NCBI GenBank assembly: GCA_963662265.2
Contig: CAXXHA010000034.1
Span: 1-39,188 of the forward strand
Reading direction: 5' to 3'
DNA: 39,188 bases
DNA from: Spirochaetia bacterium
Lineage (GTDB): Bacteria; Spirochaetota; Spirochaetia; CADAEX01
Made by a program: the position numbers and the translations under genes. The notes beneath the pieces were generated by a model. The model did no database searches. It worked only from the letters and a program-made list of their open reading frames with translations, and had not been told where the DNA came from. Positions 3,519 through 35,665 of this stretch are shown piece by piece. The stretch's first letter is position 1, and each line of letters starts with the position of its first letter.

Positions 3519-3527
3519 AACACACCT

Positions 3528-14553: not shown

Positions 14554-14562
14554 AAAAAACTA

Positions 14563-15111: not shown

Positions 15112-16107
15112 TCATCTCTCCTTCAAATTTTTCTCATATTTTATCCATATCTCAGATACACCCAGGAGGGGTACACCTATAAGGACAAAATAATTCACTC
15201 CCGGCTGAACAAGCAGCAGTGATAATGTAAATATTATCATTATCCTCATCGAATACGGGAATTTAAGAATTTTCATTAAATTCTGTATAATTCCAAGCCC
15301 TTTAATACCGTAAAGGGTTACCATAATCAGTAAAATATTCCAGCCTGTATATCCCAGAAACCCAACAGGAATTTTCCTGTCAACAAGAACAACCATCAGC
15401 GACAGAATCAGAGGCCATACCATGAAATCAGGCATGGAAAATTTTGACGGAACAAATGAACTTCTCCATTTTCCGAATCTGAAACTGGAACTGCCGAGGG
15501 CCCAGCTTACTGACAGTATCAGGAAATACCAGAAAAGATATGTCCTGAGTGCAGATTTCTTCACTGTTTCAGCCATAATTTCGGGCGTTAGCGACCTGAT
15601 AATTTCAGCCATTTCCCCCGCTTCCACCGAATCAGCCTGTGCCAGTGTTGCTTTTATAAGCTCAAGCGCAAAATTATACTGTTCAATGTAATATGCCTGC
15701 AGAATCTGATTATTATAAAACAGAAGAACAGGAATACCCAGTATAAAACCAGCGCCGACAGCAACAAGCATTCTTTTAAGCATCCGGGGATTTCCGGGCC
15801 AGTCATAGTTGATGTATAAAAATCCTGCCAGCAAATATGCAGGCAGAAGAACTTCAGAAATTACAAGAACAGCACGCTCAGCCTGGTTTTCAACACCGCC
15901 TGACCTGACAACCGCCATCACAAGAACTGCTGACAGAACTGCCAATGATGACATGAAAAATGTTCTGAAGTCCCGTCTGTTTCTGACAACCTGAAGAGGT
16001 ATGAGAAACAGCATTAGAAGATATCCGGACTGATGAAATAATGTTGCGAGTATTGTAAACCAGATTATATCAGGTGTAATTTTCTTCATTATCCGAATAA
16101 GCCTCAA
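15112..16107 (-). CDS. DUF2232 (YybS-like) membrane protein
   Basis: Multi-pass hydrophobic protein with 'F.MP...VWPLI', 'N......LYGIKGLGI' and 'LLGVSEIWI'. It occupies the conserved position between rpsR and rplI. Confidence 0.8.
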   Translation of the reverse strand: MRLIRIMKKITPDIIWFTILATLFHQSGYLLMLFLIPLQVVRNRRDFRTFFMSSLAVLSAVLVMAVVRSGGVENQAERAVLVISEVLLPAYLLAGFLYINYDWPGNPRMLKRMLVAVGAGFILGIPVLLFYNNQILQAYYIEQYNFALELIKATLAQADSVEAGEMAEIIRSLTPEIMAETVKKSALRTYLFWYFLILSVSWALGSSSFRFGKWRSSFVPSKFSMPDFMVWPLILSLMVVLVDRKIPVGFLGYTGWNILLIMVTLYGIKGLGIIQNLMKILKFPYSMRIMIIFTLSLLLVQPGVNYFVLIGVPLLGVSEIWIKYEKNLKER

Positions 16108-17662: not shown

Positions 17663-18319
17663 ATGGAAGTAAGAGAAATGGCAGCCAGTGACAAGCCCAG
17701 GGAAAAACTTTTTTCAAACGGGGTAAAATACCTGTCAGACAGGGAGCTTCTTTCAATAATTATCGGATCAGGCATAAAAGGAAAAGGTGTTTATTCACTC
17801 TCTGATGAGATTCTCAAGATACTTGATGCTGAAAACTATTCGGTTGATATAAATACACTGAAATCTGTTTCAGGAATGGGGAAAGCAAAGACAGCGCTCC
17901 TGTCTGCAGCAGTCGAATTCTCAAGAAGAATTCTGGTTCCTGAAAAGAGCAGGATTTCATCCCCGACAGACATATATCCGGTTGTAAGACATTATGCAAA
18001 CAGGAGGCAGGAGACCTTCCTTTCAGTTTCTCTGAACGGCGCTCATGAGGTGATAAAAATAAGGGTTGTTTCTATTGGGTTGGTAAACCGCACATTAGTG
18101 CACCCGAGGGAGGTCTTTGCAGACCCTCTTGCAGACCGCGCTGCCGCCCTTATTGTCTGCCATAACCACCCGTCAGGCAACACAGACCCCAGCCCGGACG
18201 ACAGGGAGGTTACTGATATACTTAAAAAGGCAGGGAAGATTCTGGGGATAGAGCTGCTTGACCATATCATTTTCTCAGAGACTAATTTTTACAGCTTCTT
18301 AGAGAAGGGGGAGATTTAA
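17663..18319 (+). CDS. radC: RadC family protein (JAB/MPN domain)
   Basis: 'KPREKL...G...LSDRELLSIIIGSG', HhH 'GMGKAK', 'VHPREVF' and 'HNHPSG...PS..D...LLDHII'. Confidence 0.96.
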   Translation: MEVREMAASDKPREKLFSNGVKYLSDRELLSIIIGSGIKGKGVYSLSDEILKILDAENYSVDINTLKSVSGMGKAKTALLSAAVEFSRRILVPEKSRISSPTDIYPVVRHYANRRQETFLSVSLNGAHEVIKIRVVSIGLVNRTLVHPREVFADPLADRAAALIVCHNHPSGNTDPSPDDREVTDILKKAGKILGIELLDHIIFSETNFYSFLEKGEI

Positions 18320-18612: not shown

Positions 18613-20052
18613 TTATCCGCACCTGTCGCAGTTTCCGCACTCAGGCTCGTTGTCAAACCCGAAATATGACTCTATTCCCTGTCTCCTGCACCTTTCATCC
18701 CTGAAATAATTTACTATTCCGAGAAGCTTTTTCCTGTCACTTAAGATTTTCTCTTCAAACAGCGGCATATCGAGAAGCCTGTCTGGCAGTTTATCGGAAA
18801 TCACTCTGATATTTTTTCCTTCCAGGCTGCCTTCAGTTACATGATATCTCTCAAACAGGTTCAGACCTGTATCCAGACGGAAGTCAAACCTGTTCTTGTA
18901 AAAAAGTTCCTCTGCCACATATTCCCTGCCGAGTGAATGGACTTCCCGCTCTTTTGATTTAAGAAGCTGATAAAGCTTTTTCAGGAAGGCAGGTTCAGGA
19001 TTGGACCACCTGATGAAATCCATGTGGATTTCAAGATCATCCTGGCTGTACAGCATCATACAAAGGGATGATTCTCCGTCTCTCCCCGCCCTACCTATTT
19101 CCTGGTAATATGATTCAAGGCTTCCCGGTATTTCTGCGTGAATTACATACCTTATATCAGGCTTATCAATTCCCATTCCGAAAGAGTTTGTTGCAAGTAT
19201 CAGACTGTCAGATTTCATAAACCTGTTCTGGACAATTTTTCTTGCATGATTATCAAGTTTTCCGTGATAGATAAGATGGGGTATATTCCTGGTATCAAGA
19301 TGATGCGAAAACTCGTTAAGTGTGCGGATCAGGGAAAAATAAATAATCCCACTTCCTTCAACTGATTTAACAATATTCTCAATTTTTTCAAGTTTCTGAA
19401 AATCATCAAAACATTCTGAAGCTTCCAGTCTCAGGTTCGGCCTCTTTATCCCCTGATGAAATATAGTTATTTCATCAGGTTTCAGATTCATGGATTTTAT
19501 AATATCTGCCTGAACTTCCTTTGTCGCTGTTGCTGTAAATGCTGCGGTTAACGGGTTGCCCAGCAGCTTTCTTATTTCCGCGATTCTGGAATAATCAGGC
19601 CTGAAATCATGTCCCCACTGGGAAATGCAGTGAGCCTCATCAACTGCAAGAAGATTAATATCAGCCCTTTTGATACTGAATGTGAAATCAGAATTATTAA
19701 ACCGTTCAGGTGTCACATAAAGAAATTTCGTCTTTCCATATACAAACTCTTCGAGCCTTTTTTTTCTTTCCCGGTGCGAAACAGTTGAATTAATATATGA
19801 GGCACCTATCCCTTTTTCCTTCAGTGAATCAACCTGGTCTTTCATCAGTGAGATCAGGGGACTCAGAACAAGAGTTTTACCTTCAAGCATTAGAGCTGGA
19901 AGCTGATAGCATAAAGACTTCCCCCCTCCTGTAGGCATTAAAACAAGAGAATGCCCATTCTTTACATACAGTAGACGGTCAATCACCTCCTCCTGTATCC
20001 CCCTGAAACTGTCTATATTAAAATATTTTTTCAATGCTTCTTTTTTATCCAT
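18613..20052 (-). CDS. recQ: RecQ-family ATP-dependent DNA helicase (short form)
   Basis: 'MPTGGGKSLCYQLP', 'VDEAHCISQWGHDFRPDY', 'TATA', 'FGMGIDKPDIR', 'YYQEIGRAGRDG' and a terminal 'CRR...CGNCDRC'. Confidence 0.95.
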   Translation of the reverse strand: MDKKEALKKYFNIDSFRGIQEEVIDRLLYVKNGHSLVLMPTGGGKSLCYQLPALMLEGKTLVLSPLISLMKDQVDSLKEKGIGASYINSTVSHRERKKRLEEFVYGKTKFLYVTPERFNNSDFTFSIKRADINLLAVDEAHCISQWGHDFRPDYSRIAEIRKLLGNPLTAAFTATATKEVQADIIKSMNLKPDEITIFHQGIKRPNLRLEASECFDDFQKLEKIENIVKSVEGSGIIYFSLIRTLNEFSHHLDTRNIPHLIYHGKLDNHARKIVQNRFMKSDSLILATNSFGMGIDKPDIRYVIHAEIPGSLESYYQEIGRAGRDGESSLCMMLYSQDDLEIHMDFIRWSNPEPAFLKKLYQLLKSKEREVHSLGREYVAEELFYKNRFDFRLDTGLNLFERYHVTEGSLEGKNIRVISDKLPDRLLDMPLFEEKILSDRKKLLGIVNYFRDERCRRQGIESYFGFDNEPECGNCDRCG

Positions 20053-20405
20053 TTTTCATCCTGCAAACTTCCGTATATCTGTAAATATCCTGCCATGCTC
20101 CATATCAGAATCATGAAACTTTTTTTTATTTTTCCAAAGTTTTATAATACTTATTTTATTAAATGCCGGCTTTTCAGTCATAACAGCTATTTTTGGGCAC
20201 CTCTGAAAACTTTTATTTACGAGTTTTTCCCCGGTAAGATGCGGACAAGTGCCTTAGATGTTTGCCCACAAGGAACCTGTCCCCGAAGGGGGGGAATCTA
20301 TAAAAAAAACCTGTGTTTTTAATATACAAAAAATTATTATCACACAAGAGGCTATAGTCTTAATTGGAATAAAATGATGCAAATTTAAGAACAGGCCCTG
20401 GTTCA

Positions 20406-21617
20406 TCAGGATTCCTCGTTATACCACTTTTCCTTTCCATAAAGATTCTTTTCACATTCGGGACATAAACCGTGACTGAATGAAAGATTCGATTTTTTCT
20501 CAAGATAACTGTCAAGCTGTTTCCAGTACCCCTTATCATCCCTTATTTTTCTGCAGTGCGAACAGATGGGAAGCAGCCCGCCAAGGATATCGATATTATC
20601 GAGCGCCTCCTTGAGTTCAATTATAACATTTTCCTTTTCATGTTCAGCCTTCTTCCTGAATTCTATTTCCCTTTTCAATTTCCTGTTCCAGATAAATATC
20701 ACAATCAGAATAATACAGAAAAAAAGCGAGCTTAAAAGAATATACCTGAAAACATCGGCATAGCTTAGTCCATACTCATATCTTATCGAAAGCCAGTCAT
20801 TCCTGACTGCAGAATGCTGCTGCGGTGTAACAGCAGCAAGCCATTTGTTGATTATGGAAATAAGTTCAGGCCAGTCGCTCCTCACAGATATAAACAGTTC
20901 ATAGTTTTTATATTTTGTCGGCGATGCAACCTTGAGGTTTGACAGCCCGTTTTTATTTATCAGGTAACTGACAGCTGCAAGGTTTCCGATATATGCATCT
21001 GCCTGTCCGGAAGAAACAGCTTCAAGAGATTCCAGAGGTGATTCTGTAAAATAGGGATTAACTTCAATTTTATCCTCTTTAAGCCAGTCATGTACAACAA
21101 CACCTTTTACAAGGGCAACTTTCAGGTCATACAGGTCCTGAAGGCCTCCTATGAATCTTGAATCATCCCTGCTTACAATTACAAGGGGGAAGGAAAGATA
21201 GGAATCGGAAAAGGAAAGGTACTCCTCCCTTTCTGGACTCCTTGCTGAACAAGCAATAATATCAATTTCCCTGTTCCTTGCTCTTTTAAGAACTTCAGGC
21301 CAGGGAAGTTTTTCATAGGATTCCACTTCAAGACCGAGTGATGAAGTTATATAACCTATGTAATCGGCAGCAATGCCGGAAGCTTTTCCCTCTTCTGTAT
21401 AAAAGTGGAACGGAGGAAAATGAAAAGGCCCGCTGATACTGACTTTCCTGTGATTATCAAGCCATTTCTCCTCTTCCGGTGTAAGACTGATCCTGACATT
21501 ATTCAGTTCAGATAAATCAACTTCATTATCCGCTGCATATATAGAAATAATATTTAATATTAATAATACAGAAAACAGATATTTAAATACTCTACAAACT
21601 GAGTTTCTAAAAATCAT
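20406..21617 (-). CDS. membrane sensor: signal peptide + family-3 periplasmic binding domain + TM + Cys/His C-terminal motif
   Basis: 'LTPEEEKWL...FPPF...GIAADY...W...L...REID...R...LSFS..Y' and 'VRSDWPELISIINK' (BvgS/EvgS-like binding domain), one TM, 'WNRKLKREI', then 'LLPICSHCRKIRDDKGYW...FSHGLCPEC'. Confidence 0.85.
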   Translation of the reverse strand: MIFRNSVCRVFKYLFSVLLILNIISIYAADNEVDLSELNNVRISLTPEEEKWLDNHRKVSISGPFHFPPFHFYTEEGKASGIAADYIGYITSSLGLEVESYEKLPWPEVLKRARNREIDIIACSARSPEREEYLSFSDSYLSFPLVIVSRDDSRFIGGLQDLYDLKVALVKGVVVHDWLKEDKIEVNPYFTESPLESLEAVSSGQADAYIGNLAAVSYLINKNGLSNLKVASPTKYKNYELFISVRSDWPELISIINKWLAAVTPQQHSAVRNDWLSIRYEYGLSYADVFRYILLSSLFFCIILIVIFIWNRKLKREIEFRKKAEHEKENVIIELKEALDNIDILGGLLPICSHCRKIRDDKGYWKQLDSYLEKKSNLSFSHGLCPECEKNLYGKEKWYNEES

Positions 21618-21752
21618 TCAGATCTCCATTTTTTTTCTGTAATTTATACTGAAGACATCTAATATCAAGGCATTTAAAATTCAAACTATATTATTCATTA
21701 TAGTACAGCTTATAATATCTTTGATGATATTTGAAACATTTAAAAAATATTT

Positions 21753-23105
21753 TCAGCAATCAGAAGTCTTTGCCAGATGCTTTCTGCAATAAAACAGGGC
21801 GGTAACTGCTGTAAGAATCTGTCCCAGTGCAAGACCGGAAATCAGCCCTGTAAATCCGGAAAAACGGCTTCCCGCATATGCAAGAGGGATCTGGAGGATA
21901 AGTGTTCCTGCTGTGTTAAGCTGTGCAGAGGGATGCGGCAGCCCTGCGGCATTGAGAGACTGCCCTGTCCAGGTATAAAATGCAAACGCACCTGAAGCTG
22001 CTGTTAATATTCTCAGATAACTTACAGTATAATTAATAACTTCAGAATCACTGCTGAATATGCCGGAAAGAACAGGGGCAAGAAGCAGGGCTGCCGCAAA
22101 AACAAAAAAACCGTATATTACAGAAAGATGAAAGGAAACCTTCCGTATTGAATTTATCCTGCCCCATTTACCTGCTCCGATATTCTGCCCCACCATTGGA
22201 ACAAGAGCCATGCTGTAGGCCCTTACAAAAATTACAGCAAAGCTTTCTATTCTTGAACCTGATGCAACGGCAGCCACTGCTGCTGCACCGCCTGCTGCGG
22301 AAGCAAGAGATGTGAGAACTCCCCGTGTGAAAGGATAAAGAAGCTGGGTAAAAGCTGCAGGTATTCCAATATGCAGAATCCGTTTCCATGAGTCCCGGAT
22401 CTCCCTGAAACCAGGTTTTGAAAAATCCAGAAGTCCTGCACTGAAATGAAGAAAGGAAAGTGTTGCAGCCATACCTGCGCACCTTGAAATAACTGTGGCA
22501 AGAGATGCCCCTCTTATACCCATCGGTGGAAAACCGAGCCAGCCGAAAATAAGAACAGGGTCCAGGACAACATTCATACCGGCACATACCATCATGACAA
22601 TAAACGGCCTGATCATATCCCCTGTGGCCCTGAGGCAGCTGTCACTGACAGGCGGCATTATAATAGCTACAGATCCAAGGTACCATATAAACATGTATTC
22701 CTTCACCAGTTTCAGAACTTCCCCTGAAGCACCCATTGCACTGAACAGAATATCAAGGGTAAATATACCTGCCAGGCTTATAATACCTACAAGCAGAGCA
22801 GACAGAAGTATACCGTCAGTCGCAGTCCTCTTCATAAGATGAGAATCACCGCTTCCCATGGCCCTTGAAAGGACTGATGCAGACCCAAGGCTTATACCTG
22901 AAGCTGCAGCTGCAACAATCAGAATAACAGGGAATGTAAATCCCATTGCTGCAAGAGCATCAGTACCGAGACGGGAAACAAAAAAAGTATCAGTCAGGTT
23001 GAATACAGTAATCGCAAGAGAGCCCCCGATTCCGGGCCATGTAAGGGAAAAAAGCTGATGTTTAACCGGGCCGGCAGTCAGTGACAACTTGTTTTTTTTC
23101 TGCAT
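21753..23105 (-). CDS. MATE-family efflux transporter
   Basis: 'FNLTDTFFVSRLGTDALAA', 'LRATGD', 'NVVLDPVLIFG...MGIRGASLAT' and 'VGQNIGA'; about 12 TM segments. Confidence 0.95.
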   Translation of the reverse strand: MQKKNKLSLTAGPVKHQLFSLTWPGIGGSLAITVFNLTDTFFVSRLGTDALAAMGFTFPVILIVAAAASGISLGSASVLSRAMGSGDSHLMKRTATDGILLSALLVGIISLAGIFTLDILFSAMGASGEVLKLVKEYMFIWYLGSVAIIMPPVSDSCLRATGDMIRPFIVMMVCAGMNVVLDPVLIFGWLGFPPMGIRGASLATVISRCAGMAATLSFLHFSAGLLDFSKPGFREIRDSWKRILHIGIPAAFTQLLYPFTRGVLTSLASAAGGAAAVAAVASGSRIESFAVIFVRAYSMALVPMVGQNIGAGKWGRINSIRKVSFHLSVIYGFFVFAAALLLAPVLSGIFSSDSEVINYTVSYLRILTAASGAFAFYTWTGQSLNAAGLPHPSAQLNTAGTLILQIPLAYAGSRFSGFTGLISGLALGQILTAVTALFYCRKHLAKTSDC

Positions 23106-23132
23106 AAAGCTGATTATAGAGCGAAACTATAA

Positions 23133-24680
23133 TTACTGATAGACTTCACATTTGTTCCTGCCGTGATTTTTTGCCAGATAAAGCGCAATATCAGCTTTGT
23201 GGAGTATTTCATCGATTTTATCACCATCAGAAGGGATCAGGGCATAGATACCGAAACTTGCATTGATTTTAATGATTTCATCATTATAAACAAATTCATA
23301 TTTTTCAACCGCTTTTCTCAGTCTTTCGGAAATCGACAGTGTTGTTTCCGCATCTGAACCGGGGCAGATTATAAGAAACTCTTCACCTCCGTATCTTCCG
23401 AACAGATCTGTTACCCTCAATTCATCAGATAAAACTGATGCGATTTTTTTCAGAACATAATCCCCTGCAAGATGGCCGTAAACATCGTTAATTTTTTTAA
23501 AATAATCTATATCAATAAGAACAAATCCCAGATCAACACTGCTTCTCCTGGCTTTATCAATTTCCGTCTGTGCAAGATCAAGAATATGCCTCCTGTTGAA
23601 AATACCTGTCAGGGAATCATAAATAGCAAAATATTCAAGTTCCCTGATAAGCATAACAGATTTGGTAATATCACTGATTATAAAAACAAAACCTCTTCCG
23701 GATTTATTTCCTTTACTGATATAGGTTATCTTCAGAAGATAGTTTTTATTATTATATTCAAACTGGTATTCAAGATTTTCCGGAGAAGGTTCTGAATACT
23801 GTACAGCAGAATCAGCAAACCTCCTGAGCGGGGAAGTTTCTGGCAGAGAGGATCCTATCATTATTTCGCCGGGTATATCAGATTTCTTCGCCGATAAATT
23901 AATATCCTGGACTATTCCGTATGTATCAAAGACAACAAGAATCTCTCTTATGGAATCAACAGCAATCTCCCTGGCATATGGAACAATATCAAACATCCTG
24001 TATCTGAAAAGAGCTACTGCAAGAAGTATTCCTGTTATTGTCAGAAAAAAAGGCTGAAGATCTATATTATGCACTCTTGCAGGATTTATCACAGCTGAAA
24101 TTATAGGTAGAAGTCCTGATACAAAAACAAAAAGATACTGTTTCCTTTCAACCCCCTCTTTTTTAATGATATTTATCAGGAGAAGAATCTCTGCGGCAGA
24201 AGAAGATAGCACAAGGCTGAGCATATTAATCACATACCATGGCCCCACTGAATATTCAAGCATTGGAAATATTCTGTCAAAATCAAGACTGGTTGTCTTG
24301 TAGAATAAATCATGATTTTCAAGATTAAGCACAAGAAGCATTGTAATGACAGGTATTGCAAAAAGCAGGCAGAGAAAATAATATTTGATTTTTCTGCCTG
24401 TAACAAGTTTAACAGTAAATACAAAGAACAAAACAGCTGAAAAAGGTATCCCCAGGAACTGTATTCTCAATGAATCAAATATACCGGGAAGTGTATTCTG
24501 ATTGATTTCTAGAGCATATCCGAAACTGTAGAAAGATACAGAAAGCAGAAAAAGAGAGAATTCAAAAGCCCCGTTCACCTTCCTGCGGCATGCTGCCACC
24601 CAGGCAGCCAGCGAAGCTGAAGCAATACCGGAAATAACAAGTATAAACGCAAGCTGCATTGGGAGTTCTTTAAAAATCAT
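23133..24680 (-). CDS. diguanylate cyclase with an N-terminal 7TM (HisKA_7TM-like) sensor and a PAS-like linker
   Basis: Seven hydrophobic segments ending 'LFRYRMFDIVP', then 'DSLTGIFNRR', 'DIDYFKKINDVYGHLAGD', the I-site 'RVTD' and the A-site 'RYGGEEF'. Confidence 0.95.
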   Translation of the reverse strand: MIFKELPMQLAFILVISGIASASLAAWVAACRRKVNGAFEFSLFLLSVSFYSFGYALEINQNTLPGIFDSLRIQFLGIPFSAVLFFVFTVKLVTGRKIKYYFLCLLFAIPVITMLLVLNLENHDLFYKTTSLDFDRIFPMLEYSVGPWYVINMLSLVLSSSAAEILLLINIIKKEGVERKQYLFVFVSGLLPIISAVINPARVHNIDLQPFFLTITGILLAVALFRYRMFDIVPYAREIAVDSIREILVVFDTYGIVQDINLSAKKSDIPGEIMIGSSLPETSPLRRFADSAVQYSEPSPENLEYQFEYNNKNYLLKITYISKGNKSGRGFVFIISDITKSVMLIRELEYFAIYDSLTGIFNRRHILDLAQTEIDKARRSSVDLGFVLIDIDYFKKINDVYGHLAGDYVLKKIASVLSDELRVTDLFGRYGGEEFLIICPGSDAETTLSISERLRKAVEKYEFVYNDEIIKINASFGIYALIPSDGDKIDEILHKADIALYLAKNHGRNKCEVYQ

Positions 24681-24748
24681 TACACCCCCTGTTACACATA
24701 AATTATATGATGATTAATAATAAAAATCGAATAAAACAGCAACATCAT

Positions 24749-26032
24749 CTATGCAGTCTCTTTTACCCTGCCGCGGCATGGAAGCCTGATTACTACAGAT
24801 GTTCCGCTGCCCGGTGAAGAATTAATCCTGACCTTACCTTCCAGAAGATTTACCCTGTCTGCAAGTCCCCGGAGACCTAGGTTGAACCTGTCCTCAAGCT
24901 TATCATCCGGTTCAAATCCTATACCGTTGTCTTCAACCCGTATAATAAATTCAGGGAATGCAAGTATTACACTCACAGCAACTTCTGTTGCTCTTGAATG
25001 ACGGACAACATTAAAAAGGCATTCATGAATCATTTTAAAGGCAGCAGTCTCAAATTCATCATCAATTGATGTTTTATCAAGACCTATACATTTCAGATCA
25101 GTTCTGATGTTATTTGAAAAAGAAAAATCAGTGCAGAAATTTTCAAGCGATTCTTTGAGAGGTTTATCAAGTTCCTGCGGTCTCAAGTTATATGATATTT
25201 CTCTTGCAGATTTTATTATACGCTGAGAAACTGTATTTATATCATTTATAATCCTGTGCCAGTTAACTTCTTCCCTGCCGGCAGCCTGTTCGCATTTTTT
25301 ATTTATTACCAGTGCATTCTGAACTACAATATCATGAAGGTCAAGCGACATCCTGAGCCGTTCTTCGTCTCTTATCTTCATAAGCAGCCCGGAAAGATCC
25401 CTTATCCTGCGCTCCCTTTTTATAATAATATGGTAATTCAGAATCAGATTCACCAGGAAACTGAATATCAGGACCATGATGGAAACAATGATAATAAAAA
25501 CAGTCCAGTAATACCTGGTTCTTTCAACAAGATGCGATTCGATGTAAACAAGAATGTTTTTCAGTTTTTTTTCAAAAAAATCAGTCTCGTTTGAAAAATT
25601 GTAAATCTCGGAAACAAAAATATCAAAATTGTTTTTATACAAAACAGTCTCCACCAGTTTCAGCTGTATCTGCTGCCAGACAAGAACAACTGTAGCAATT
25701 TCATCCTGAGCCTGATTATTGATTATTCCCGCTGCAGAGAAAAGTTCCTTATCAAGAACATTATCCATTACAATTTCGAAATCAGAAACACTCCTTACAA
25801 GTGTATCAGTTCTACGGTTTTCAGGAGAACTCAGCATGTACTTTATTGTTTCACTTTTTACAATAAGCCAGTTTTCATATATTCTGTTGATTTCATTATT
25901 TTTCCTGATCATGGTAATTACACGGTTATATGAGGGAACAGTAATAAACGGGACAATTAAAATAAAAAGCAGGCAGAATAATATCAGAAGTCTCTTATGA
26001 AGCCTGCTGTCCGGAATAAAAAGCGGCATCAC
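24749..26032 (-). CDS. two-TM sensor histidine kinase (HisKA_3/NarX-like)
   Basis: H-box 'EERLRMSLDLHD', 'ISYNLRP', N-box 'ECLFNVVRHS', 'DNGIGF', 'GLRGLADRV..LEG' and 'PGSGT'. Confidence 0.93.
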   Translation of the reverse strand: MMPLFIPDSRLHKRLLILFCLLFILIVPFITVPSYNRVITMIRKNNEINRIYENWLIVKSETIKYMLSSPENRRTDTLVRSVSDFEIVMDNVLDKELFSAAGIINNQAQDEIATVVLVWQQIQLKLVETVLYKNNFDIFVSEIYNFSNETDFFEKKLKNILVYIESHLVERTRYYWTVFIIIVSIMVLIFSFLVNLILNYHIIIKRERRIRDLSGLLMKIRDEERLRMSLDLHDIVVQNALVINKKCEQAAGREEVNWHRIINDINTVSQRIIKSAREISYNLRPQELDKPLKESLENFCTDFSFSNNIRTDLKCIGLDKTSIDDEFETAAFKMIHECLFNVVRHSRATEVAVSVILAFPEFIIRVEDNGIGFEPDDKLEDRFNLGLRGLADRVNLLEGKVRINSSPGSGTSVVIRLPCRGRVKETA

Positions 26033-26997
26033 ATCAACTCCTTTTCCCTGAAATACCTGACAGCACCTTTATGAAAAGGAATTGTCACCCCTTCGGCCGG
26101 ATTATTCCAGTTTATTCTGGATGTAATTGTCGGGAGAAGATCAATCAGGTATTCACGGTTCTCAAACCATATCTTAGTAACCTCATAAGCTGTCTCCTCA
26201 GGCAGGTCTTCCATACATACTGTAAGATAGTTGCTGACAAGCTGGTAAGCATTTTCAGCACCTACTTCCTCTCCGAAAAGGGTCAGCCTGAAATAGGGAT
26301 ACCGTACAAGTACTTCCCTGATTATGTCGGGATTTCCTTCCAGGAACCGTATATCTGAAGAATCACAGATTTTTTTCAGTGTACCGTGTCCGTATCCGAA
26401 TTTATGAATAACAGCATCAATTTCCCTGTCTATAAACAGGTCAGCTGAATCATTTTTCATCATCCTGAGAATCTCGCTGTTTTTTTCATCAACACCGTGA
26501 AGCTTAAGCAGTTCAATAACAAAATCGCCCCAGAAATTTCCTTCTGAATATGTTGCTATCTTTTTCCCTTTCAATCCGCTTAAACTCTTTACTTCTGAAT
26601 CATTATGCACAATAAAATTAAGTACACCCGGCTGGGTGGCAAAAAGCGCCCTCAACCCTTTCAAAGGCTTATCCCAGAAAATTCCACCCCTGTATGCCAT
26701 ATCTGCCATGCTTGTTCCTGCATATCCTATTTCAACCTTGCCGTCTCTCAGTTTCCGCATAGTTTCAAATTCAAGTCCCGGAGATATGCTGTTTGCTGCA
26801 ATATATTCTGAATCCCTGCAGATCAGATTTGCCCATGCCGATCCGCATGCATGCCAGGTCCCCCCGATTGCAGAGGATTTGATATGAAGAAATTTCCACT
26901 CCCCGTATTTTTCATCAGCATTTTTTCTGATTTCATTATTATTGCAGCTGCTGAAAAATAAACAAATTAGAAAAGCATAAAGCAGTCTGGATCTCAT
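26029..26997 (-). CDS. TAXI-family (TRAP) solute-binding lipoprotein
   Basis: Lipobox 'LFFSSC', 'GGTWH..G', 'LRALF', 'VKSLSGLKGKKI', 'LPEETAYEVTK..FEN' and the C-terminal 'IPFHKGAVRYFRE'. Confidence 0.88.
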   Translation of the reverse strand: MRSRLLYAFLICLFFSSCNNNEIRKNADEKYGEWKFLHIKSSAIGGTWHACGSAWANLICRDSEYIAANSISPGLEFETMRKLRDGKVEIGYAGTSMADMAYRGGIFWDKPLKGLRALFATQPGVLNFIVHNDSEVKSLSGLKGKKIATYSEGNFWGDFVIELLKLHGVDEKNSEILRMMKNDSADLFIDREIDAVIHKFGYGHGTLKKICDSSDIRFLEGNPDIIREVLVRYPYFRLTLFGEEVGAENAYQLVSNYLTVCMEDLPEETAYEVTKIWFENREYLIDLLPTITSRINWNNPAEGVTIPFHKGAVRYFREKELM

Positions 26998-27183
26998 AAT
27001 CTACCGCCTGACAATTTAAATAAATATTTATATCATACTGATTTTAAGGAATTAAATTAATATGACTTGCTTCAAATATTCAGGAAATATTCTTTTATAT
27101 ACTTTTTTTTCTGATAATAAAAAGAGATATTATATATGAAATAATATACTTCAGGAAAATTCAGTTTTTAACACTCATAACAG

Positions 27184-29478
27184 CTACCTTACTTCATAGC
27201 TGATACTTCTTGTTTCACTTCCGTCATCTGCTGTAATCAAATGACTTCCCTTTTCCAGCCTGACCATTACAGAAACAGCGTTCTTCTCTCTTCCAATTAC
27301 TCTGCTGTCAAGCCTGAGAATTAATTCTTCATCCCTGCCGCTTACTACGCTGATTTTTATCATCTGGTCTTTACCCGGGAAATAGGGGTCCAGAATAAAG
27401 CTTGCATTGTTTATGGGAGAAAGAATCTCAAGCGACTGATTACTGTCTGAAACAATATCAGAATTAATCCCCCTGTAACTCAGCCACTCACTGTACTGGG
27501 GAGGATAGGAGGAACCGGAAGCTGTATGGAAAGTGCAGGGAGCAGGAATGTTTCCAGGCTTGAATATTTCTGTTTTAACAGAACTGCAGTATTCACCTGC
27601 AAGCATACCTGATATGGCGCATATCTCTTTTTTCACAGTATTGCCGTTTCTCCGGAATTCACCTCCCCCGCCTGAAGCATTGAAAAACTCGATAAGCGCA
27701 TCAGCAGGCAGAGAACTTCCCGGAGCGCCGATTACTGTATCGCCTGAGAAATTACCCATCCAGATACCTCCGGCAAGATCAGGCATAAGGCCGGCTGCCC
27801 ATATGTTGTTGAACTGATTCGATGTCCCTGTCTTAATCATTACTTCGTTATCCGACTTGAACACATTGCTGCTTCCGAAACCTGTAGTCCGGCTTAAGGG
27901 ATCGGTCAGGATATCACGTATTATAAGGGCGGAATCAGGATCAACAATACCTGAAGAGAAGGAACCCCCATAACCTGAAGATACAGATGACTCTTCATGA
28001 CTTATCATACCAATAATATTCCGATCAGCTGTTTCCCTCCCCCTGCTGCTGCCAGTCAGGAAAACAGGCTCCATGATTTTATGGTTATCACTGAAAATAC
28101 AGTAGCTGTTTACAAGTTCAAGAAGGGATACTTCAGCGCCCCCGAGAGCAAGAGAAAGCCCTGCAGAATCCTTTTTCCCGGCCAGTGACTTGAAGCCAAG
28201 CTCGACTAGCCTTTTCCTGAAATTCTCAACCCCAAGCTTTTCAAGTGTATATACAGCAGGCACATTGAGAGATGACCCGAGAGCATCCCTGAGCCTCACC
28301 GGGCCGTTGAAAGTATTATTGAAATTCTGCGGTATATAGACTTCCCCTGTCCCGAACTCGCAGGGTATATCGGGAAGAAGCGTTGAAGGGGTAAATCCCT
28401 TTTCAAGAGCCAGCTCATAGAGAAAAGGCTTCAGAGTGGAACCGGGCTGCCTCAGGGCTGTAACTCCGTCATTCATCCCTTCGCTTTCCAGTGAAAAATA
28501 ATCGGCAGATCCCGCATAAGCCAGAACTTCATGTGTTTCAGGATCTATAATTACCCCACTTCCGTTGCTGATCCTGAATTTACCTGCTTCGGATATACGC
28601 CTTTCAAGAACAGCTTCAAGCCTGCTCTGAAGTTCAAAATCAAGCGTTGTAATTACAGCTTCCCCTGAACAGGCATCCTCAGAGCTGATCATTTTCTCAA
28701 TCCTGTTGCAGAAATGGGGAGCATGGAAGGGCCAGCTGAAATACTTTATATGATTTCCAGCCTCTTCTACAGTTTTTCTTATTTCATCTTCTGTTATACC
28801 AGACCCGCACCTTAATAACAGTTCAGAAGCTGCCGATACAACATTTTCAGGGAATTTAACAGGATCATATACAGACGGGCTTCTCGGGACAACCGCAAGG
28901 ACAAGAGCCTGGGCCTCTGTAAGATATTCAGCACCAATTCCGAAATAAAGCCTGGATGCCGATTGTATCCCCTCAATATTTCTGCCGAACGGAACTGTAT
29001 TTATCCACATCATGAAAACAGATTCCTTGCTGAATCTCATGCTGTATCTTACAGCAGAAAAAGCCTCCCGCATCTTTCCCTTCAGCCCGCCGTTATGGGG
29101 GACAAGCTGCCGGGCAAGCTGCATTGTGATAGTGGATGCCCCTGAGACTGTCTTGCCGCTTGTCAGATTATCAGAAAAAGCCCTTGCAACAGATACAGGG
29201 TCGACACCGGGATGGAAAGAAAACCTCTTATCCTCGCTTCTGATAAAAACCTGTCTCACTTTTTCAGGTATTTTTTCATATTCAATCTTCTCCCTGTGAA
29301 GACCGTTTTCAAGGGGAAGGATTCTGAGTATTTTACCGTCCCTGCTCACAAGAGGGGATGAGAAAGAGCAGTTTTTAAATGCATCAGTATCCTTACCAGG
29401 AGCAATCAGGACTGCGGAAAGCGACAGGAGGAGAAAAGCAGCTGCAACAAGCAGCTGCTTCCTTTGATTATTTTTCAT
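27184..29478 (-). CDS. pbpC: penicillin-binding protein 1C
   Basis: Glycosyltransferase motifs 'SEDKRF..HPGVD' and 'GASTITMQLAR'. Transpeptidase motifs SxxK 'STLK', 'SLN' and 'KTGT'. It overlaps the macroglobulin gene end by 11 bp. Confidence 0.95.
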   Translation of the reverse strand: MKNNQRKQLLVAAAFLLLSLSAVLIAPGKDTDAFKNCSFSSPLVSRDGKILRILPLENGLHREKIEYEKIPEKVRQVFIRSEDKRFSFHPGVDPVSVARAFSDNLTSGKTVSGASTITMQLARQLVPHNGGLKGKMREAFSAVRYSMRFSKESVFMMWINTVPFGRNIEGIQSASRLYFGIGAEYLTEAQALVLAVVPRSPSVYDPVKFPENVVSAASELLLRCGSGITEDEIRKTVEEAGNHIKYFSWPFHAPHFCNRIEKMISSEDACSGEAVITTLDFELQSRLEAVLERRISEAGKFRISNGSGVIIDPETHEVLAYAGSADYFSLESEGMNDGVTALRQPGSTLKPFLYELALEKGFTPSTLLPDIPCEFGTGEVYIPQNFNNTFNGPVRLRDALGSSLNVPAVYTLEKLGVENFRKRLVELGFKSLAGKKDSAGLSLALGGAEVSLLELVNSYCIFSDNHKIMEPVFLTGSSRGRETADRNIIGMISHEESSVSSGYGGSFSSGIVDPDSALIIRDILTDPLSRTTGFGSSNVFKSDNEVMIKTGTSNQFNNIWAAGLMPDLAGGIWMGNFSGDTVIGAPGSSLPADALIEFFNASGGGGEFRRNGNTVKKEICAISGMLAGEYCSSVKTEIFKPGNIPAPCTFHTASGSSYPPQYSEWLSYRGINSDIVSDSNQSLEILSPINNASFILDPYFPGKDQMIKISVVSGRDEELILRLDSRVIGREKNAVSVMVRLEKGSHLITADDGSETRSISYEVR

Positions 29479-32400
29479 CTACAATTTCTATAAGCATACC
29501 GCCTGACCTTCCGAAGACCTCAGGTTCATCAATAACCTCTGCATATGCCGGCGGTGTGGGATAGGTACCGGCAGAAACAGTCCTGAAAAGGAAATCAACT
29601 GTCTGGCTCCCCTTCCTGAATGCGGGGAAGCGGTAGAAAACCCTGCTGTTGTAGACCTGTTTATCAGGTTTGAGAGAATATATACGCATCCCCTCATCTT
29701 CTATAAAAATGTAGCCCTCATCAACATAAGTTTCTGTATCTCCGTACTCAGTCTCATCTGTCCAGCTTCTACTGTCAACTCCCCCGCTTTCAGCATAGCT
29801 TCCTGTTGTAACAAAAGATGAATTAAGTATTTCACACCCTGAAGGGACAGGAATCTGAACCCCCAGGTCATAACGTGTTTTGGAGGAGGAAATTACAAAC
29901 CTCATCCTGTATGTTTCACCGTTTTTAAGAGAACTGCTCTCTATACTGTTTCCCTCAAGGTCCCGTATCTCGGTGAAAAGGCTTATCCCTTCGTCACGGG
30001 GAGATACAATTTCCGAAGGAAGGGCATATGAAAATGAAGCTGAATAGAAAAGCCTCCCCCTGCCTTCAGCACTGAAAGAAAGCGGATAGGGAGTATCTTT
30101 TTCAAGCGAATTGAGAGGTTTTTCATAGAGAGTGAATTTTTCATTTACAACAGAAGATGACAAGCCTTCGAAATTTCCGGAAAAAAGAGTTTCATTTCCT
30201 ATTTTCACTTCTGTACTCATATCAGCAGAAGCACTTTTTTCATTCATTGAATAATCTGCTGCAGCAAGCAGTACAGTAAGTGTATCATAACGGTTATTCC
30301 AGTAGCCGTTCTTCTCAGCCCTGCACAGGGTAGATGCATAAACAGGAAGGATATTATCGCTTCCCTTAATTCTGTGGTAAAGCATGCAGAGAAGAGAGAG
30401 TCTTCTAACAGGAGAATCAAAATACCCCTTTGCCTCATATGTTTCGGAAAAATCCACAGACCTTGTTCCTGTTTTTACGAATTTCCTGCAGTATTCAAGA
30501 ACCTCTTCAGCCTTCCTTCTGTCGCCGCTGTTATAAAGCGAAAGTCCGCAGTACAGGTAGCCTGACATACCCAGTTCATCCCCTTTTTCAAGAAGCCTTT
30601 GAGCATCTTCTCTCATGTCTTTTCCAAACCTGGAAAGGAGAAATGCAATCCTGCACTTGCTGAAAACCGATATATCAGGATCATTCATCTGGTTACCGAG
30701 GTAGGCAACAAGAGCATTTTCCCTCTTTTCGCTCAGGACAGATCTTTCCAGAAGCCTTGCGTATGACTGGTACTCTGCAATTTCAAGGCTGAGATAAAGG
30801 TCTGACCTTGAATAATAATCTTTATACCTGTAATCGTTTATAAAACCGCCGTCTGAAAACTGGTGTTTCTTAAGAAGAGATGCAAAACCGGACAATTCGG
30901 AAGCTGAAAAACTGTTTCCGGGACTCAGTTCTGAAAGTTTTTCCCCGAAAAGCATGTCGGGATACGAAGTATACATATTATCGCATAACGATATCTTCCA
31001 TGGCGAGTTATCCAGATATGAAACAGCATTTCCCGAAGAGGGGAACATCCCTGATGAGAGTGCAAGGCTTATCCCTCCGTACCCGCCGTTAACAGTCGAG
31101 GGAAATATAAACATTTCCTCGTCCGGACTTCCTTCCGCATCTGTGTTTCCTGTAATTGTGAAAGTCTCTTTAACAAGCGGCTTTGTGACTTTAATTTTCT
31201 GCTCAAGAATCTCATTGAAGTTATCAGCCTGCACAAGGAACTGGACAACAGCATCCCCTGTCTTTACAGCTGTAAAATCAAAAGGAACTGCCCTGCTGCT
31301 TCCCGCTTTCAGAAGGACTGCTTTTTTTGATTTTCCCGAGATTTTCAATATGTTGCTTTCGGCGGTAACAAGGATTTTAACATCTTTACCGGTAAGGTTT
31401 GTTAGAACTGCCTTAACCTCGGTCTTATCCCTTACCCTGAGTTCAAGCGGGGAAGCCGCCCTTACAGTTACAGGGTTTCTCACAAAAAGCTCATGCTCCC
31501 TGTAGCCGAAATTTCCGCTTTTTACAACAAAAGCTGTAGATCTGTATGTTGTAAGCGTATCGGGAAAAATGAAATCAGCGTCTGCAAATCCGTTTTCATC
31601 TGTCTTTAGAAAAGGCTTGAAAACAGCAAGGGGTGAAAATTCCTTTCTCCTCTGCATCTTGTCGCTGTCACCCCCAATATGGTCTTCAACCTCGTAAGTC
31701 ACAGGATCAATGAGAAGCGATCTTGAATCGCCCCCGAGAACTGCATGAGGATAGCGGTACGGTGAATAGAAATATTTTACCGGGTCAGGTATATGGTAAT
31801 TGATAAGGTCAAGAACACCCCTGTCTACCGCAAGAAATGTGACTTCCGCATCTTTGACAGGTTTCCCGTTTCTTGTAACCCTTACCCTGACCCTGCTTTC
31901 AGATCCCGGTTTATATATATCTTTATCAGGTATTATTTCAACCTCGAATTCTTTCGATTCTGTCGATATCCTGATCGGTGTAATGCCGAAATAACCTCTG
32001 GGTTTCCCGATATCCTCGTCATAATAGGAACGGGGAGTCTCTTTCCTTTCTGAATTTGAACAGAGAGCAATATAAACGACAGGTACCCAGCTTTCGCTTA
32101 CAGGTATTTCAAGAAGCCCTGCAGATCCCTTGATATCGATGAGTTTTTCCTCTAGAAGCCCTTCCCTCTCAATAGTCATAAGGTATTTACCGTCATTAAG
32201 CGGTGTTTTTACAAGTATTTTCGCAGTTTCCCCCGGCCTGTATTCATCCTTGTCAGGAATAAGCTCTATATTTTCAGGAGACCTCAGGCCCCAGTTGACC
32301 CAGCTCCCCCCTGTCACGTAAAAATCCAGTTCAGTTATTACAGCTCTTTCCTTCATATCGACTGAAGTAAGACGGAGCTTGTAACTGCCGCAGTTCTCAG

Positions 32401-35400
32401 GAAGGAATTCAGCCTCAGATATGCCGTTTTTCATATCTATTGTTACAGTTTTTTCGACACTCTCAACCATTTCCCAGTTATAGTTCATCCTGCCGTAGAC
32501 ACCTCTCTGGGTGGAACTTTTCCATTCCTTTCTGATAAGCTCAGCCTTTACCTGAACATCTTTAACATAAAGCTCCTCTTCAGGTGTGATGCTGTTGATA
32601 TCAAACAGGACAGGATCCCCCTTGCTGACAAAGGTGCTCCACCAGGATGAATCGGATTTTGACTTGATCTTTGCCCCTATATAGAATTCTGAAGGATGTA
32701 CTGTAACATTTCTTGCAGCGGCAAGTTCCTGGTTACTCAGGTCCTGCACGCTTATTTCTGCCGTATACCTGTAGGTCAGACCTTCACCATGGTCGCTTCC
32801 TGTTTTCTGTACAAGCTCAGCCTTCCCGCTGCCTGAAAGTTTCCCCCTCTTTGACCCGAGAGTTCTGAGGTAATCGCTCCTGTCAGGTCCGTAAACATAA
32901 TTTTTGAGTTCTCTGCCTGAGGGGGAATAGCTGATACTGCTTCTTCTCCAGCTGCTTCTGTAGGGAGCATCCGACATGTTCCCCCCCGAAAGGAATGATG
33001 CCTCCGCTTCCAGCGATATGCTGTCGCCTGCATAGTAGGTCATTTCTGACGGGGAAATATCAACCTGGAATTCCGCCCTCTTGAATTCAGCAACCCTGAA
33101 ATATATGCTCCTGTCTGCATATCTTTTCCTGTTTTCAAGGCTGCTGTTGAAAAACATTATCCTGTATTCCCCCACAGGAGTATTTTCCGGTATTTTAAAT
33201 TCCCCGGAAAAGCCCCCCTCTTCAGTAAGGGTAAAATCTCCTGCATAAATATTTTTTGACCTGTTGTCGAGTTCAGGAACAGTTATGCACTTTGTCCCTG
33301 TATCAGGAGACCATTCGCCTGTGGATCTCTTCTGCACAATCCCCCTGAAAGTTACTGTTTCCCCCGGTTTATACAGGCCCCTGTCTGTAAAAAGCATCGC
33401 ATGCTGCACAGGCTTTGTAACACTCCACGGCTCATTCATGCCGTAAATATTCCACCGGTACCTGTTATGACCGTAACCTGGCTGAAAATAGAGTGTATCA
33501 TCCCCTTTTGTTATTTTTACGATCATCCCCTCTTTATAATAGGATGGCTTGTTTCTGTCCCATTTTGTCCTTACAGGTGAAAAACTGTCTTTTTCATATT
33601 CTATTACCGACAGCCCGCTGCTGTCTGTCACACCTGAAGCAACAAGTCCTCTTTTTCCGTCAATAAGTTCCACTGTTGCATCTGCAACAGGGCTGCCTGA
33701 AGAGAGCGAGTTGACCCAGACAGCAGCCTTGTCATAACCGTACCTGACAGTGGCACCGAGATCAGAAACCTGGAGAATGAGTTTGTTGTACCTGTACCTG
33801 GTTTCATAGTCCTCTGTACCGTATTTCTTTCTTTTTACCCCCATCTTCCACCTGAGGCCTACAGTTCCGAAACCGGAGTCATTGAGATAATCCTTCAAAT
33901 CGACAGTCCTGAAATACTTCCTGTTTTTCTGCATGTATGAAGTATCAAATGTCCTGTATTCATAAGGATAGCTGTAACCGGTCCAGTCATCCACCTTGCC
34001 GATATTCCAGTAGCTGTCCTCGAGGTTCTGGAATTCAAAAATCATTTTAGGATCAAACTGTGCTTCCAGTGTCTTGAATCCAGAATCCCTGAAATAAGCA
34101 TAGGATGCAGCATCAGGAACTTCAATCTCTTCGAAATAGTTACGGGTAAGTTCTCTTCCGTAAATATCAGTAAGCCCCTTCCTGACTGTCACTGTATATT
34201 TAGAATTATATTCAACCGGGAGATTGTTTATTTTAACAATATTGTCGAATATCTCTATATTGTCTTCTGAAATAACTGTATCAAGTGTTGTTTCAATAAA
34301 TTCCAGAATCCTGCCTGCATCAGGTGAGACAGGATGGGTAAATGTAAGGTACACAGGATTGGAATCAGGCTTCTGGCTTCGGGGAAAACTGTAGCTGTAG
34401 TTGTCTGAATACCTGAAACGGAAAGGTTTTATAGTATGAAGGTTTCTGCTTGAATCATCAGATCTTCCGAGTGAATCTTCATATGACTTTGCCCCTTTTT
34501 TAAGACTTACAACAATATCTGTATCTTCAGGAAAATCCTCGCTGAAACTGAGTACAGCAGTTCTTTCATAGAGGTTTTCATCTTCCAGAAGGTATTCACT
34601 CCTTGATATTCCGAAAGGAACAGCATTGAGAGGAGATTTTGAAGTTACAACTTCTATATAGTCTTTTATCACATCAATATCGAAAGGATAGGACAGCTGT
34701 ACTGTTATCTTCCTGGCATCAGGCAGGGGAATATCCCTGATATTTATATATTCAGAATTATCAGGGGTCGAAGGGTATACAGATGTAAAATCGATGTATT
34801 CAGTATAAAAGCTGAATTCAATACCTTCCCTGAGGCTGGCCCCTGTTACTGATTTTGTATCAGCAGAAACAGACACAGTATATTCCTTCTGGGGTAGCAG
34901 TTTCCCGTCAGGTTCAAAGCTCAGTGTTCTTGACCCGTACCACCTGTATTTTCCCTGAACCGGAGGATCTATTTTCATTACAGGGGATTCAGCAAGAGTT
35001 TTTCCCAGCCTGGAAAGGGGGACAACCGGATCTGAAAAAACAACTGAAATCACCGGTTTTTTACTCATTTCATTCGGAAGCATTCCGGATGGTGAAAAAT
35101 CGGCGACATGAAAATCCCCACCCTCTCCTTGAGAAGATACAAATCCGCTCAGGTCAAAATCATCGGGATTGAAGTAATTCACATTTATTGATGATAAATC
35201 ATCATCAGCTTTTACAATTTCTTCAGGAGCAATTATATCTTTAATATCCGGAAGATTCGTAAATTCGCTTACATCTATTTCATTTTCATCTTCGAGAAAA
35301 TCCGGATTTATTTTATTTTCACTGTTTTTTTCAGATTGGAAACAGCCTGTGGAAAGAAAAAAAATTACAGCAGTAATAAATACATATTTGATCAGTCTTT

Positions 35401-35404: not shown

Positions 35405-35665
35405 TATATACCCCATTTTTTTTAATATTTAAAGTATACAGTTTTATAATTTTCTTAGTCTACATCATGCAGGGAAATTTGAAGAATTGATTATTTGTTT
35501 TTCCAGTTTTTATGTTTTTCAATTTTAATGCTTACAGCATCTACTGTGCAAATCAGACAATACTGCTGAATGCAGAAATCAGATATGATGCACATAACTC
35601 GATATGCCGGGCATGGAGATTTTTTCAGGCTTAAGGAGAAGACAGAGCTTTCCGGACAGTCAAAG

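Follow-up and report, generated by a model that had tools for sequence, protein, structure and literature searches.

A TAXI-family gene for a putative lipoprotein coupled to a histidine kinase gene in a Spirochaetia genome: putative derivative of a five-gene cassette and candidate co-sensor pair

In a stretch of 39,188 nucleotides from a Spirochaetia bacterium (contig CAXXHA010000034.1, assembly GCA_963662265.2; the whole stretch is called the window in the following), the gene for a TAXI-family solute-binding protein (P0001), a putative lipoprotein, is followed on the minus strand by the gene for a HisKA_3-type sensor histidine kinase (P0002), with overlapping stop and start codons. Judged from sequence comparisons, this pair would appear to be a stripped-down derivative of a five-gene cassette of Spirochaetia, in which the same two genes are neighbours and are accompanied by genes for a fused transporter permease, a response regulator and a small protein of secreted type. 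The TAXI protein may present its ligand to a predicted four-helix bundle in the periplasmic part of the kinase, a reading to which we assign a probability of roughly 0.4.

The identities of the two products agreed with those given in the preliminary description, which had been made from the sequence alone. P0001 matched the Pfam family NMT1_3 with an E value of 2e-36 (126.6 bits, cut-off 27; residues 43-319 aligned to positions 5-288 of a profile of 289) and the NCBIfam model TIGR02122, TRAP_TAXI, over profile positions 1-319 of 320 (137 bits, cut-off 84.35). Its hydrophobic N-terminus ends in ...LFFSSC, with Cys18 at 26944-26946, which was read by eye as a lipoprotein signal; most TAXI orthologues possess SCSG at the corresponding site. 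P0002 scored above the Pfam cut-offs for HisKA_3 (26.9 bits versus 24) and HATPase_c (42 bits versus 26.4; E 1.4e-10). The most similar NCBIfam models, those of MctS, UhpB, LiaS and NarQ/NarX, matched in their cytoplasmic halves alone, with scores well short of the cut-offs.

The octamer ATGTGATG (minus strand, 26034-26027) comprises the stop codon of the TAXI gene with the codon before it, and two potential starts of the kinase, which confirmed the overlap originally reported. The stop TGA occupies 26031-26029, and the kinase begins either with GTG at 26032 or with ATG at 26029, the overlap amounting to 1-4 nucleotides. A sequence AAGGAG is located at 26043-26038, inside the 3' end of the TAXI gene and 8 nucleotides ahead of the kinase ATG. 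The N-termini of orthologous kinases align with a start at this junction, and both open reading frames (ORFs) are of full length, with no frameshift or internal stop. The two genes are translationally coupled, and their junction looks optimised, not accidental. As had been stated before, neither a DctQM permease nor a NarL-type regulator is encoded in the window: Pfam detected no DctM permease and no regulator with REC and GerE domains among the 32 ORFs of at least 100 residues, and tblastn with three permeases, three regulators and four small proteins from the related loci gave a best E value of 0.001, in the membrane part of the MatE gene, the remainder having E values of at least 0.27.

Scanning of one genome per species with a TAXI alignment yielded 30 matching stretches, of which five (L001-L005) encode a relative. 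The same five-gene cassette is present in all five. One strand carries the HisKA_3 kinase gene (409-453 residues) and, directly after it, a gene for a regulator with REC and GerE domains (219-227 residues); the divergent strand carries the TAXI gene, a DctM-family fused permease gene directly downstream (640-659 residues) and then an ORF of 122-143 residues. The product of this small ORF has a signal-like N-terminus, matches no Pfam family, is 49-53% identical among the five loci and has no counterpart in the window. The TAXI proteins of the cassettes were assigned by Pfam for L001 and L002, and by tblastn for the other three. The cassette kinases are orthologous to the window kinase over its full length (in BLASTP, the comparison with L002 gave an E value of 2e-63 for residues 27-422); the periplasmic parts have the motifs YENWL, SVS.YE, WQ.IQ.KL and ETD.FE in common, and the catalytic residues are invariant, with H233, N341, D368, G370 and G372 conserved throughout an alignment of six kinases. 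Both window proteins are the most divergent of the six: the TAXI protein shows 49-54% identity to its relatives, versus 59-86% among the latter, and the kinase 30-39%, versus 38-60%.

TAXI and orthologous kinase genes are thus adjacent in six of six loci, the window included. Such adjacency of two rare families is beyond chance, and the sequences point to an old and conserved association, whose usual form is a familiar two-component system next to a transporter presumably controlled by it. The suggestion that a TAXI protein had been newly recruited to a kinase was not borne out, since orthologues of both proteins, including the periplasmic domain of the kinase, are neighbours in all five related loci. 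A permease retained in homologous loci had been named beforehand as an argument against repurposing, and a fused DctQM was found in every one of the five. Pairs of TAXI and HisKA_3 genes lacking DctM are represented by the window only, the other five of the six loci carrying DctQM; the pairing itself is therefore not peculiar to this genome, as had been considered, and only its permease-less form is. What had been called the best candidate for a new system retains the distinction of a two-gene form seen so far nowhere else, and otherwise reduces to a derived leftover of a cassette of familiar appearance.

The genes around the cassette vary from one locus to the next. In L002 only, genes for a LarA-like protein (lactate racemase family) and a glycerate kinase follow the regulator gene on the same strand (L002:4645-7055, minus strand), which is a weak hint at an organic-acid substrate; in view of the differing flanks and the occurrence of these genes in a single locus, no inference about a substrate was drawn.

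In all five relatives the TAXI promoter contains a ATAAGGAAAA-like box twice in direct orientation, at a spacing of 30 bp, and the second copy abuts a CTGATA -35 element with a TATAAT-like -10 element; the boxes are a candidate site for the NarL-type regulator of the cassette. They were not found upstream of the TAXI gene of the window, where a matrix derived from the 10 boxes (sites of 10.5-20 bits) reached at best 7.6 bits, which is rank 61 in the window. A loose regular expression, formulated post hoc, gave 3 hits in the 186 bp against about 3 per kb of the window, the matrix gave none, and a conserved operator at this place was rejected. The only repeat found upstream of TAXI was one weak AT-rich inverted pair, and a scan of positions 20000-29700 for promoters and terminators remained at chance level (25 promoter-like and 10 terminator-like sites versus 24.5 and 8.0 expected). 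Since all five relatives have full cassettes, and no matching operator box is present upstream of the TAXI gene of the window, the window holds the derived form: the locus has lost permease, small protein and regulator, the kinase gene has been reoriented and now follows the TAXI gene, and their junction has shrunk to an overlap.

The periplasmic domain of about 140 residues, with neither HAMP nor PAS, which the preliminary description had proposed for the kinase, was corroborated: two hydrophobic stretches (residues ~15-33 and ~176-199) are ~142 residues apart, and Pfam gave no match to HAMP or PAS in P0002. An AlphaFold2 model of kinase residues 1-205, based on an alignment of 22 sequences, was all-helical (pLDDT 82.5), with helices at residues 9-67, 75-92, 95-104, 106-132, 136-149 and 151-204. 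As modelled, the first transmembrane helix (TM1) continues into a long helix, three further helical segments follow, and the last helix leads into TM2 towards HisKA_3. The top matches obtained with Foldseek in the PDB were four-helix-bundle sensor domains, namely Vc1313-LBD, KinB, HK9, Tar, NarQ, Adeh_2942 and PcaY, with target-normalised TM-scores of 0.48-0.65 and none at E<=0.001; chain L of 5XSJ was among the matches weakly (rank 30, TM-score 0.26-0.34). No Pfam family, 4HB included, matches the domain, and an Atlas feature search returned look-alikes of CHASE3, PilJ and 4HB_MCP, which serve as a lead only. The periplasmic domain of the kinase is accordingly predicted to be a four-helix bundle.

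A profile of this sensor domain, built on residues 1-205 of the kinases of the six loci, retrieved 22 sequences with E<=0.001 out of 1.84 billion representative proteins; 13 of these had E<=1e-10 and 3 had E<=1e-30. Four of the 22, which are fragments of 54-123 residues, and a protein of 6489 residues (P0155) were set aside, and Pfam was applied to the other 17. All 13 sequences of at least 400 residues contained HATPase_c, and 12 of them HisKA_3; the four shorter ones (178-229 residues) were fragments with no match. The domain thus appears to be rare and so far known only in HisKA_3-type kinases of similar build. A word-indexed search with the kinase gave relatives of at most 31% identity (over 67% of the query); it missed the orthologues of L001-L005 and is therefore unusable for counting the kinase family. 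In P0155, four stretches match a 45-residue part of the sensor profile (E 9.8e-09).

The closest solved relatives of P0001 are the TAXI proteins 8U79, 1US4/1US5 and 8S4J, with about 25% identity. In HMMER alignments with 1US4 and 8S4J, SPGLEFET of P0001 takes the place of STGGSVAN and STGGSIYN. For VcGluP, glutamate is described as bound by Y45, S75, Q93, E125, Y200 and M201, with S75 contacting the alpha-carboxylate of the ligand (PMC11574862). These residues align to W48, E76, G94, G124, H198 and K199 of P0001, with none of the six identical (HMMER with 8S4J; the mapping is approximate at about 25% identity), and the six positions are invariant or nearly so across a TAXI clade of 12 members. 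Since a glutamate, E76, occupies the position of the carboxylate-binding serine, the motif argues for a ligand other than a glutamate-type amino acid, and perhaps for a new ligand class.

This clade is rare. Relatives of P0001 comprised 11 sequences at 48-74% identity and five more at 22-26% (17 hits at E<=0.001 among 1071 candidates), and clusters at 48% identity or more numbered 12 among 5.8 billion proteins; those few of the 11 relatives which bear names come from Spirochaetia metagenome genomes. The alignment of the 12 clade sequences has 77 invariant columns, including S72-M80 (SPGLEFETM, 12/12), and P0001 keeps every one of them. As the motif is also invariant in transporter-linked members, it is no sign of repurposing; of the altered pocket motif reported earlier, the departure from the STGGS type stands, but not the significance attached to it. 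At sites invariant in the other 11 sequences, P0001 has 13 private changes, versus 0-8 in the others; most are conservative (K/R, F/Y, I/V). A partial relative, P0003, is encoded on a contig of 2.5 kb and is 74% identical to P0001; the two form a clade with a support of 100/100, a long stem branch (0.79) and a position in a polytomy, the outgroup branch being 5.9. Together with the long branch and the high divergence of the pair, the private changes would fit a functional shift, relaxed constraint or simply a more distant host. An AlphaFold2 model of the TAXI protein (12-sequence alignment) was poor, with a pLDDT of 67.3 and values below 50 for residues 71-123, which include the motif, and was not used for pocket or fold.

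Signalling by the pair could proceed as follows. The membrane-anchored TAXI lipoprotein would bind its non-glutamate ligand in the clade-conserved pocket, and in its closed form would dock on the predicted periplasmic four-helix bundle of the kinase. Docking should shift the transmembrane helices, which lead directly into the HisKA_3 helix in the absence of a HAMP domain, and the shift would alter autophosphorylation at His233. The phosphoryl group would then pass to a NarL/LuxR-type regulator, presumably encoded elsewhere in the genome.

Of the cassette, the window has kept exactly the two parts that reach outside the cytoplasm. That both families are rare and yet occur together likewise speaks for a co-sensor, as do the intact reading frames in which all family-invariant residues are preserved. 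By analogy, the layout with overlapping genes and no transporter nearby resembles that of the dedicated pairs of binding protein and kinase XylFII-LytS, LuxP-LuxQ and HptA-HptS, whose binding-protein genes are marked as associated with signalling genes in Table 1 of a 2021 review (PMC8050422). The fate of the permease was approached indirectly: a kinase identical to P0002 is recorded on a contig of 1,099,738 bases, and none of the best 120 relatives of the cassette permease (6645 at E<=1e-30 among 8000 scored) lies on a contig of this length or of 39,188 bases. The orthologous permease has therefore probably not simply moved within that contig, a statement which covers these 120 relatives and this one contig only. 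Of the evidence at hand, the window remnant gives the strongest hint that TAXI proteins of this clade communicate with the neighbouring kinase.

Several observations weigh against a TAXI co-sensor. The arrangement without permease and regulator, with both genes in the same direction, exists in one of the six loci only, and there the operator boxes of the relatives are missing. All five relatives show the ordinary layout of a two-component system beside a transporter, which needs no contact between TAXI protein and kinase, and a NarL-type regulator is absent from the window. In either protein library no kinase closer than about 40% identity was found, despite the 74% TAXI relative P0003, and the TAXI-kinase operon is therefore known from a single lineage. 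The TAXI protein of L001 is nearest to those of L002 and L003 (80-81%) and its kinase to those of L004 and L005 (59-60%), which argues against tight co-evolution of the two; the sequences suggest recombination between the cassette halves at the divergent promoter. In the sensor domain itself, W55 and W119 are invariant and could line a ligand pocket, and four-helix bundles like those of Tar, NarQ and PcaY, all among the Foldseek matches, also bind small ligands directly. Finally, gene loss is evidently ongoing in this genome, as broken genes are present at positions 1-4900. These consist of a DeoR-type regulator split into two ORFs (helix-turn-helix 405-602, sensor domain 181-387), an FGGY sugar kinase broken into three or more pieces (2730-2948, 2165-2506 and 1713-2006) and a truncated Maf ORF (4379-4807) which covers profile positions 76-184 of 187 only; they look like real pseudogenes and not like sequencing errors, because elsewhere in the window the ORFs are long and uninterrupted.

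The fold as such does not decide between docking and direct sensing, both uses being known for comparable bundles. Docking is represented by XylFII, which binds sideways on LytS, and by MBP on Tar, as presented in the review (PMC8050422). If the kinase of the window senses its substrate directly through the bundle, the TAXI protein would be a former regulatory target which makes no contact with it. The ancestral kinase would have switched on the TAXI-DctQM genes by way of the NarL-type regulator, and a rearrangement would have left the TAXI gene in front of the kinase gene; the kinase would now signal to an unlinked regulator, and the TAXI protein would still feed a permease encoded elsewhere or do nothing useful. 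We regard this as the main rival explanation, short of an even chance and only slightly less probable than a TAXI co-sensor. It would account for the divergent arrangement of the five relatives with their promoter of two ATAAGGAAAA-like boxes, for the incongruent similarities of TAXI proteins and kinases, and for the Foldseek matches to direct ligand binders, to which Vc1313-LBD may be added; besides, "orphan" genes for TRAP binding proteins are known, as mentioned in work on TAXI-GltS (PMC12344293). It leaves unexplained the fitted stop and start with a Shine-Dalgarno sequence inside the 3' end of the TAXI gene, and the retention of exactly the two extracytoplasmic sensing parts out of five genes would not be expected by chance. 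That none of the best 120 permease relatives was placed on the 1.1-Mb contig with the identical kinase counts against it too, although indirectly.

It is improbable that the pair is merely a decaying remnant, in which a cassette is being lost and two intact genes have become functionless. The window lacks three of the five cassette genes, pseudogenes for DeoR, FGGY kinase and Maf are found on the same stretch, and the high divergence of both proteins, the long stem branch of P0001 and P0003 and the 13 private changes would all be compatible with decay. Both reading frames, however, are uninterrupted, all catalytic residues of the kinase and the whole clade-invariant set of the TAXI protein have been kept, the private changes are mostly conservative and the junction looks optimised; the divergence itself could reflect a more distant organism. 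Very unlikely is an output by cyclic di-GMP, in which the pair would act on the downstream 7TM-PAS-GGDEF cyclase by membrane contact instead of phosphotransfer: the cyclase gene lies on the same strand behind a gap of 68 bp, and binding proteins acting on GGDEF/EAL proteins are listed in Table 1 of the review, for example NspS-MbaA (PMC8050422), but the cyclase is devoid of a receiver domain, none of the five relatives has a GGDEF gene in its cassette, and adjacency is the only link with the pair. In L004 only, an unrelated gene for a GGDEF protein of 246 residues is situated 2.3 kb away from the cassette.

Among the branches of TRAP transport, that of the TAXI proteins has been studied least, and these proteins have been treated as transport receptors; to our knowledge, ligands are known for only a handful of them. 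In 2025, one was shown to have joined a symporter outside TRAP. Kinases which depend on binding proteins are established, and it is plausible that the new element here is a TAXI-type candidate in an operon with no permease. Table 1 of the 2021 review contains LuxP-LuxQ, XylFII-LytS, TorT-TorS, HptA-HptS, ChvE-VirA, AioX-AioS, BctC-BctE, CBP-ChiS and GltB-GtrS, and the binding-protein families given there for kinases include Peripla_BP_4, Peripla_BP_1, SBP_bac_11 and the TctC type, with none of TAXI type; "TAXI" occurs in that paper only within the word "taxis" (PMC8050422). Among the texts read after a full-text search of the available literature, none described a TAXI protein as co-sensor of a kinase, which is in keeping with the earlier remark that such a pairing was not known to be described.

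The XylFII-LytS system of Clostridium beijerinckii (PDB 5XSJ) resembles the window in that the binding-protein gene has a kinase gene, not a transporter gene, as its neighbour, and the periplasmic domain of LytS is described in the review as a TarH-like four-helix bundle on which XylFII docks sideways (PMC8050422); in the window the bundle is predicted only. XylFII belongs to the ABC-type family Peripla_BP_4, in contrast to the TAXI protein with NMT1_3, LytS represents another class of kinases, and regulator and target operon of XylFII-LytS are known. In its logic, BctC of Bordetella pertussis (BctDE/BctCBA) is closest to the full cassette of L001-L005, since the binding protein of a tripartite transporter there serves both uptake and signalling by the adjacent two-component system, as reviewed (PMC5812351). 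BctC is, however, a member of the TTT (TctC) family and not of TRAP/TAXI, permease and regulator, both missing from the window, have been kept there, and the contact of BctC with BctE was shown by two-hybrid assays. The closest TRAP-type case is DctB-DctS-DctA of Bacillus subtilis, in which DctB is of the DctP type and DctS a kinase of the CitA/DcuS type; its co-sensing is reportedly the work of Graf et al. in 2014. That system also needs the transporter DctA, and it differs from the window with its TAXI-type protein, HisKA_3 kinase and predicted four-helix-bundle sensor. DctB is discussed as a TRAP-type binding protein which is co-sensor of a kinase and not part of a TRAP transporter (PMC12718363, discussion).

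With TAXI-GltS of Bordetella pertussis (BP0403/BP0402) the window has in common a TAXI gene with no TRAP permease nearby, overlapping (there by 3 bp) with the gene of a partner outside TRAP; GltS is a Na+/glutamate symporter, and TAXI-GltS is therefore still a transporter, with a TAXI protein that is elongated, dimeric and glutamate-binding (PMC12344293). The partnership was deduced from genome context and translational coupling, the same type of evidence as is used here, and kinases are not mentioned in the main text of that paper (PMC12344293). Canonical TAXI-TRAP systems, such as VcGluP-VcGluQM and TtGluBP, have binding proteins of the same family and length, as lipoprotein or in secreted form. 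Their fused DctQM partner, considered the rule for TAXI in reviews (PMC5812351), is found in L001-L005 and not in the window.

If TAXI proteins do signal to kinases, another family would be added to the binding proteins which double as sensors. The TAXI clade and the rare four-helix-bundle domain may, rather tentatively, form a dedicated receptor complex; in full cassettes the TAXI protein would be used twice, by DctQM and by the kinase, and the window would hold the first natural case in which a TAXI protein has lost its part in transport and serves a histidine kinase solely to bind the ligand. The locus would provide a clean test bed, being a two-gene unit with no confounding transporter and a pocket of non-glutamate type, for which five related cassettes are available as comparisons. 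Should the kinase instead sense its substrate directly, an ordinary regulator-target pair scrambled by rearrangement would be left, which is of little wider interest.

Positions of the features of the gene pair, its surroundings and the related loci (positions without locus label refer to the window)
Feature	Position	Strand	Basis or remark
TAXI-family solute-binding protein gene (putative lipoprotein), P0001, 322 residues	26029..26997	-	Pfam NMT1_3, TIGR02122
HisKA_3 sensor histidine kinase gene, P0002, 426-427 residues	24749..26029/26032	-	Pfam HisKA_3 and HATPase_c, orthologues in L001-L005
Coupling junction: AAGGAG, last TAXI codons, stop TGA, kinase start	26027..26043	-	direct sequence reading, ORF coordinates
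SPGLEFET codons, TAXI residues 72-79	26761..26784	-	aligns to STGGS carboxylate-binding loop of glutamate-binding TAXI proteins (HMMER)
Predicted periplasmic sensor domain, kinase residues ~34-175 (TM1 ~15-33, TM2 ~176-199)	25508..25933	-	AlphaFold2, Foldseek
HisKA_3 dimerisation/phosphoacceptor domain, residues 224-288	25169..25363	-	Pfam; presumed phospho-acceptor His233 at 25334-25336
HATPase_c catalytic domain, residues 330-419	24776..25045	-	Pfam
186-bp region upstream of TAXI, presumed promoter of the pair	26998..27183	-	lacks the two-box operator of the relatives
7TM / PAS-like / GGDEF diguanylate cyclase gene	23133..24680	-	Pfam HisKA_7TM and GGDEF; 68-bp gap after kinase stop; context only
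Shared promoter layout upstream of TAXI	L001:2235-2343, L002:9800-9907, L003:9775-9877, L004:8905-9018, L005:2590-2690		
Small secreted-type ORF	L001:5317-5685, L002:12850-13218, L003:12833-13204, L004:12060-12491, L005:5658-6077		follows the DctQM gene

Downstream of the kinase gene and on the same strand are the genes for the GGDEF cyclase, a MatE exporter and an SBP_bac_3 membrane protein. Residues 235-351 of the cyclase read PAS-like by eye, and a receiver domain was ruled out, as Pfam gave no match to REC. Two other candidates for missing partners were likewise eliminated by Pfam: the ORF at 17663-18319 (218 residues), considered as a response regulator, is RadC, and 13213-16107, considered as TRAP DctPQM, encodes DnaB, L9 and a DUF2232 protein. 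At 38746-39186 the window ends within the gene for a DpiA/CitB-type regulator, of which it includes the C-terminal part (HTH_64); this regulator is not of the NarL type which pairs with HisKA_3. This DpiA/CitB-like regulator gene overlaps the start of a gene for a FAD_binding_2 flavoprotein by 4 nucleotides (37343-39186, minus strand).

Upstream of the TAXI gene are pbpC and an alpha-2-macroglobulin gene (27184-35416, minus strand); the gene for the PBP1C-type penicillin-binding protein (764 residues) overlaps by 11 nucleotides the end of that for a bacterial alpha-2-macroglobulin of 1982 residues, a familiar gene pairing. The SBP_bac_3 protein (20406-21617, minus strand; 403 residues) has a signal-like N-terminus, a single membrane-spanning stretch and, on the cytoplasmic side, a short tail rich in Cys (LPICSHCRKIRDD...GLCPEC), and from its sequence it looks like a membrane-bound sensor of binding-protein type with an unusual output end.

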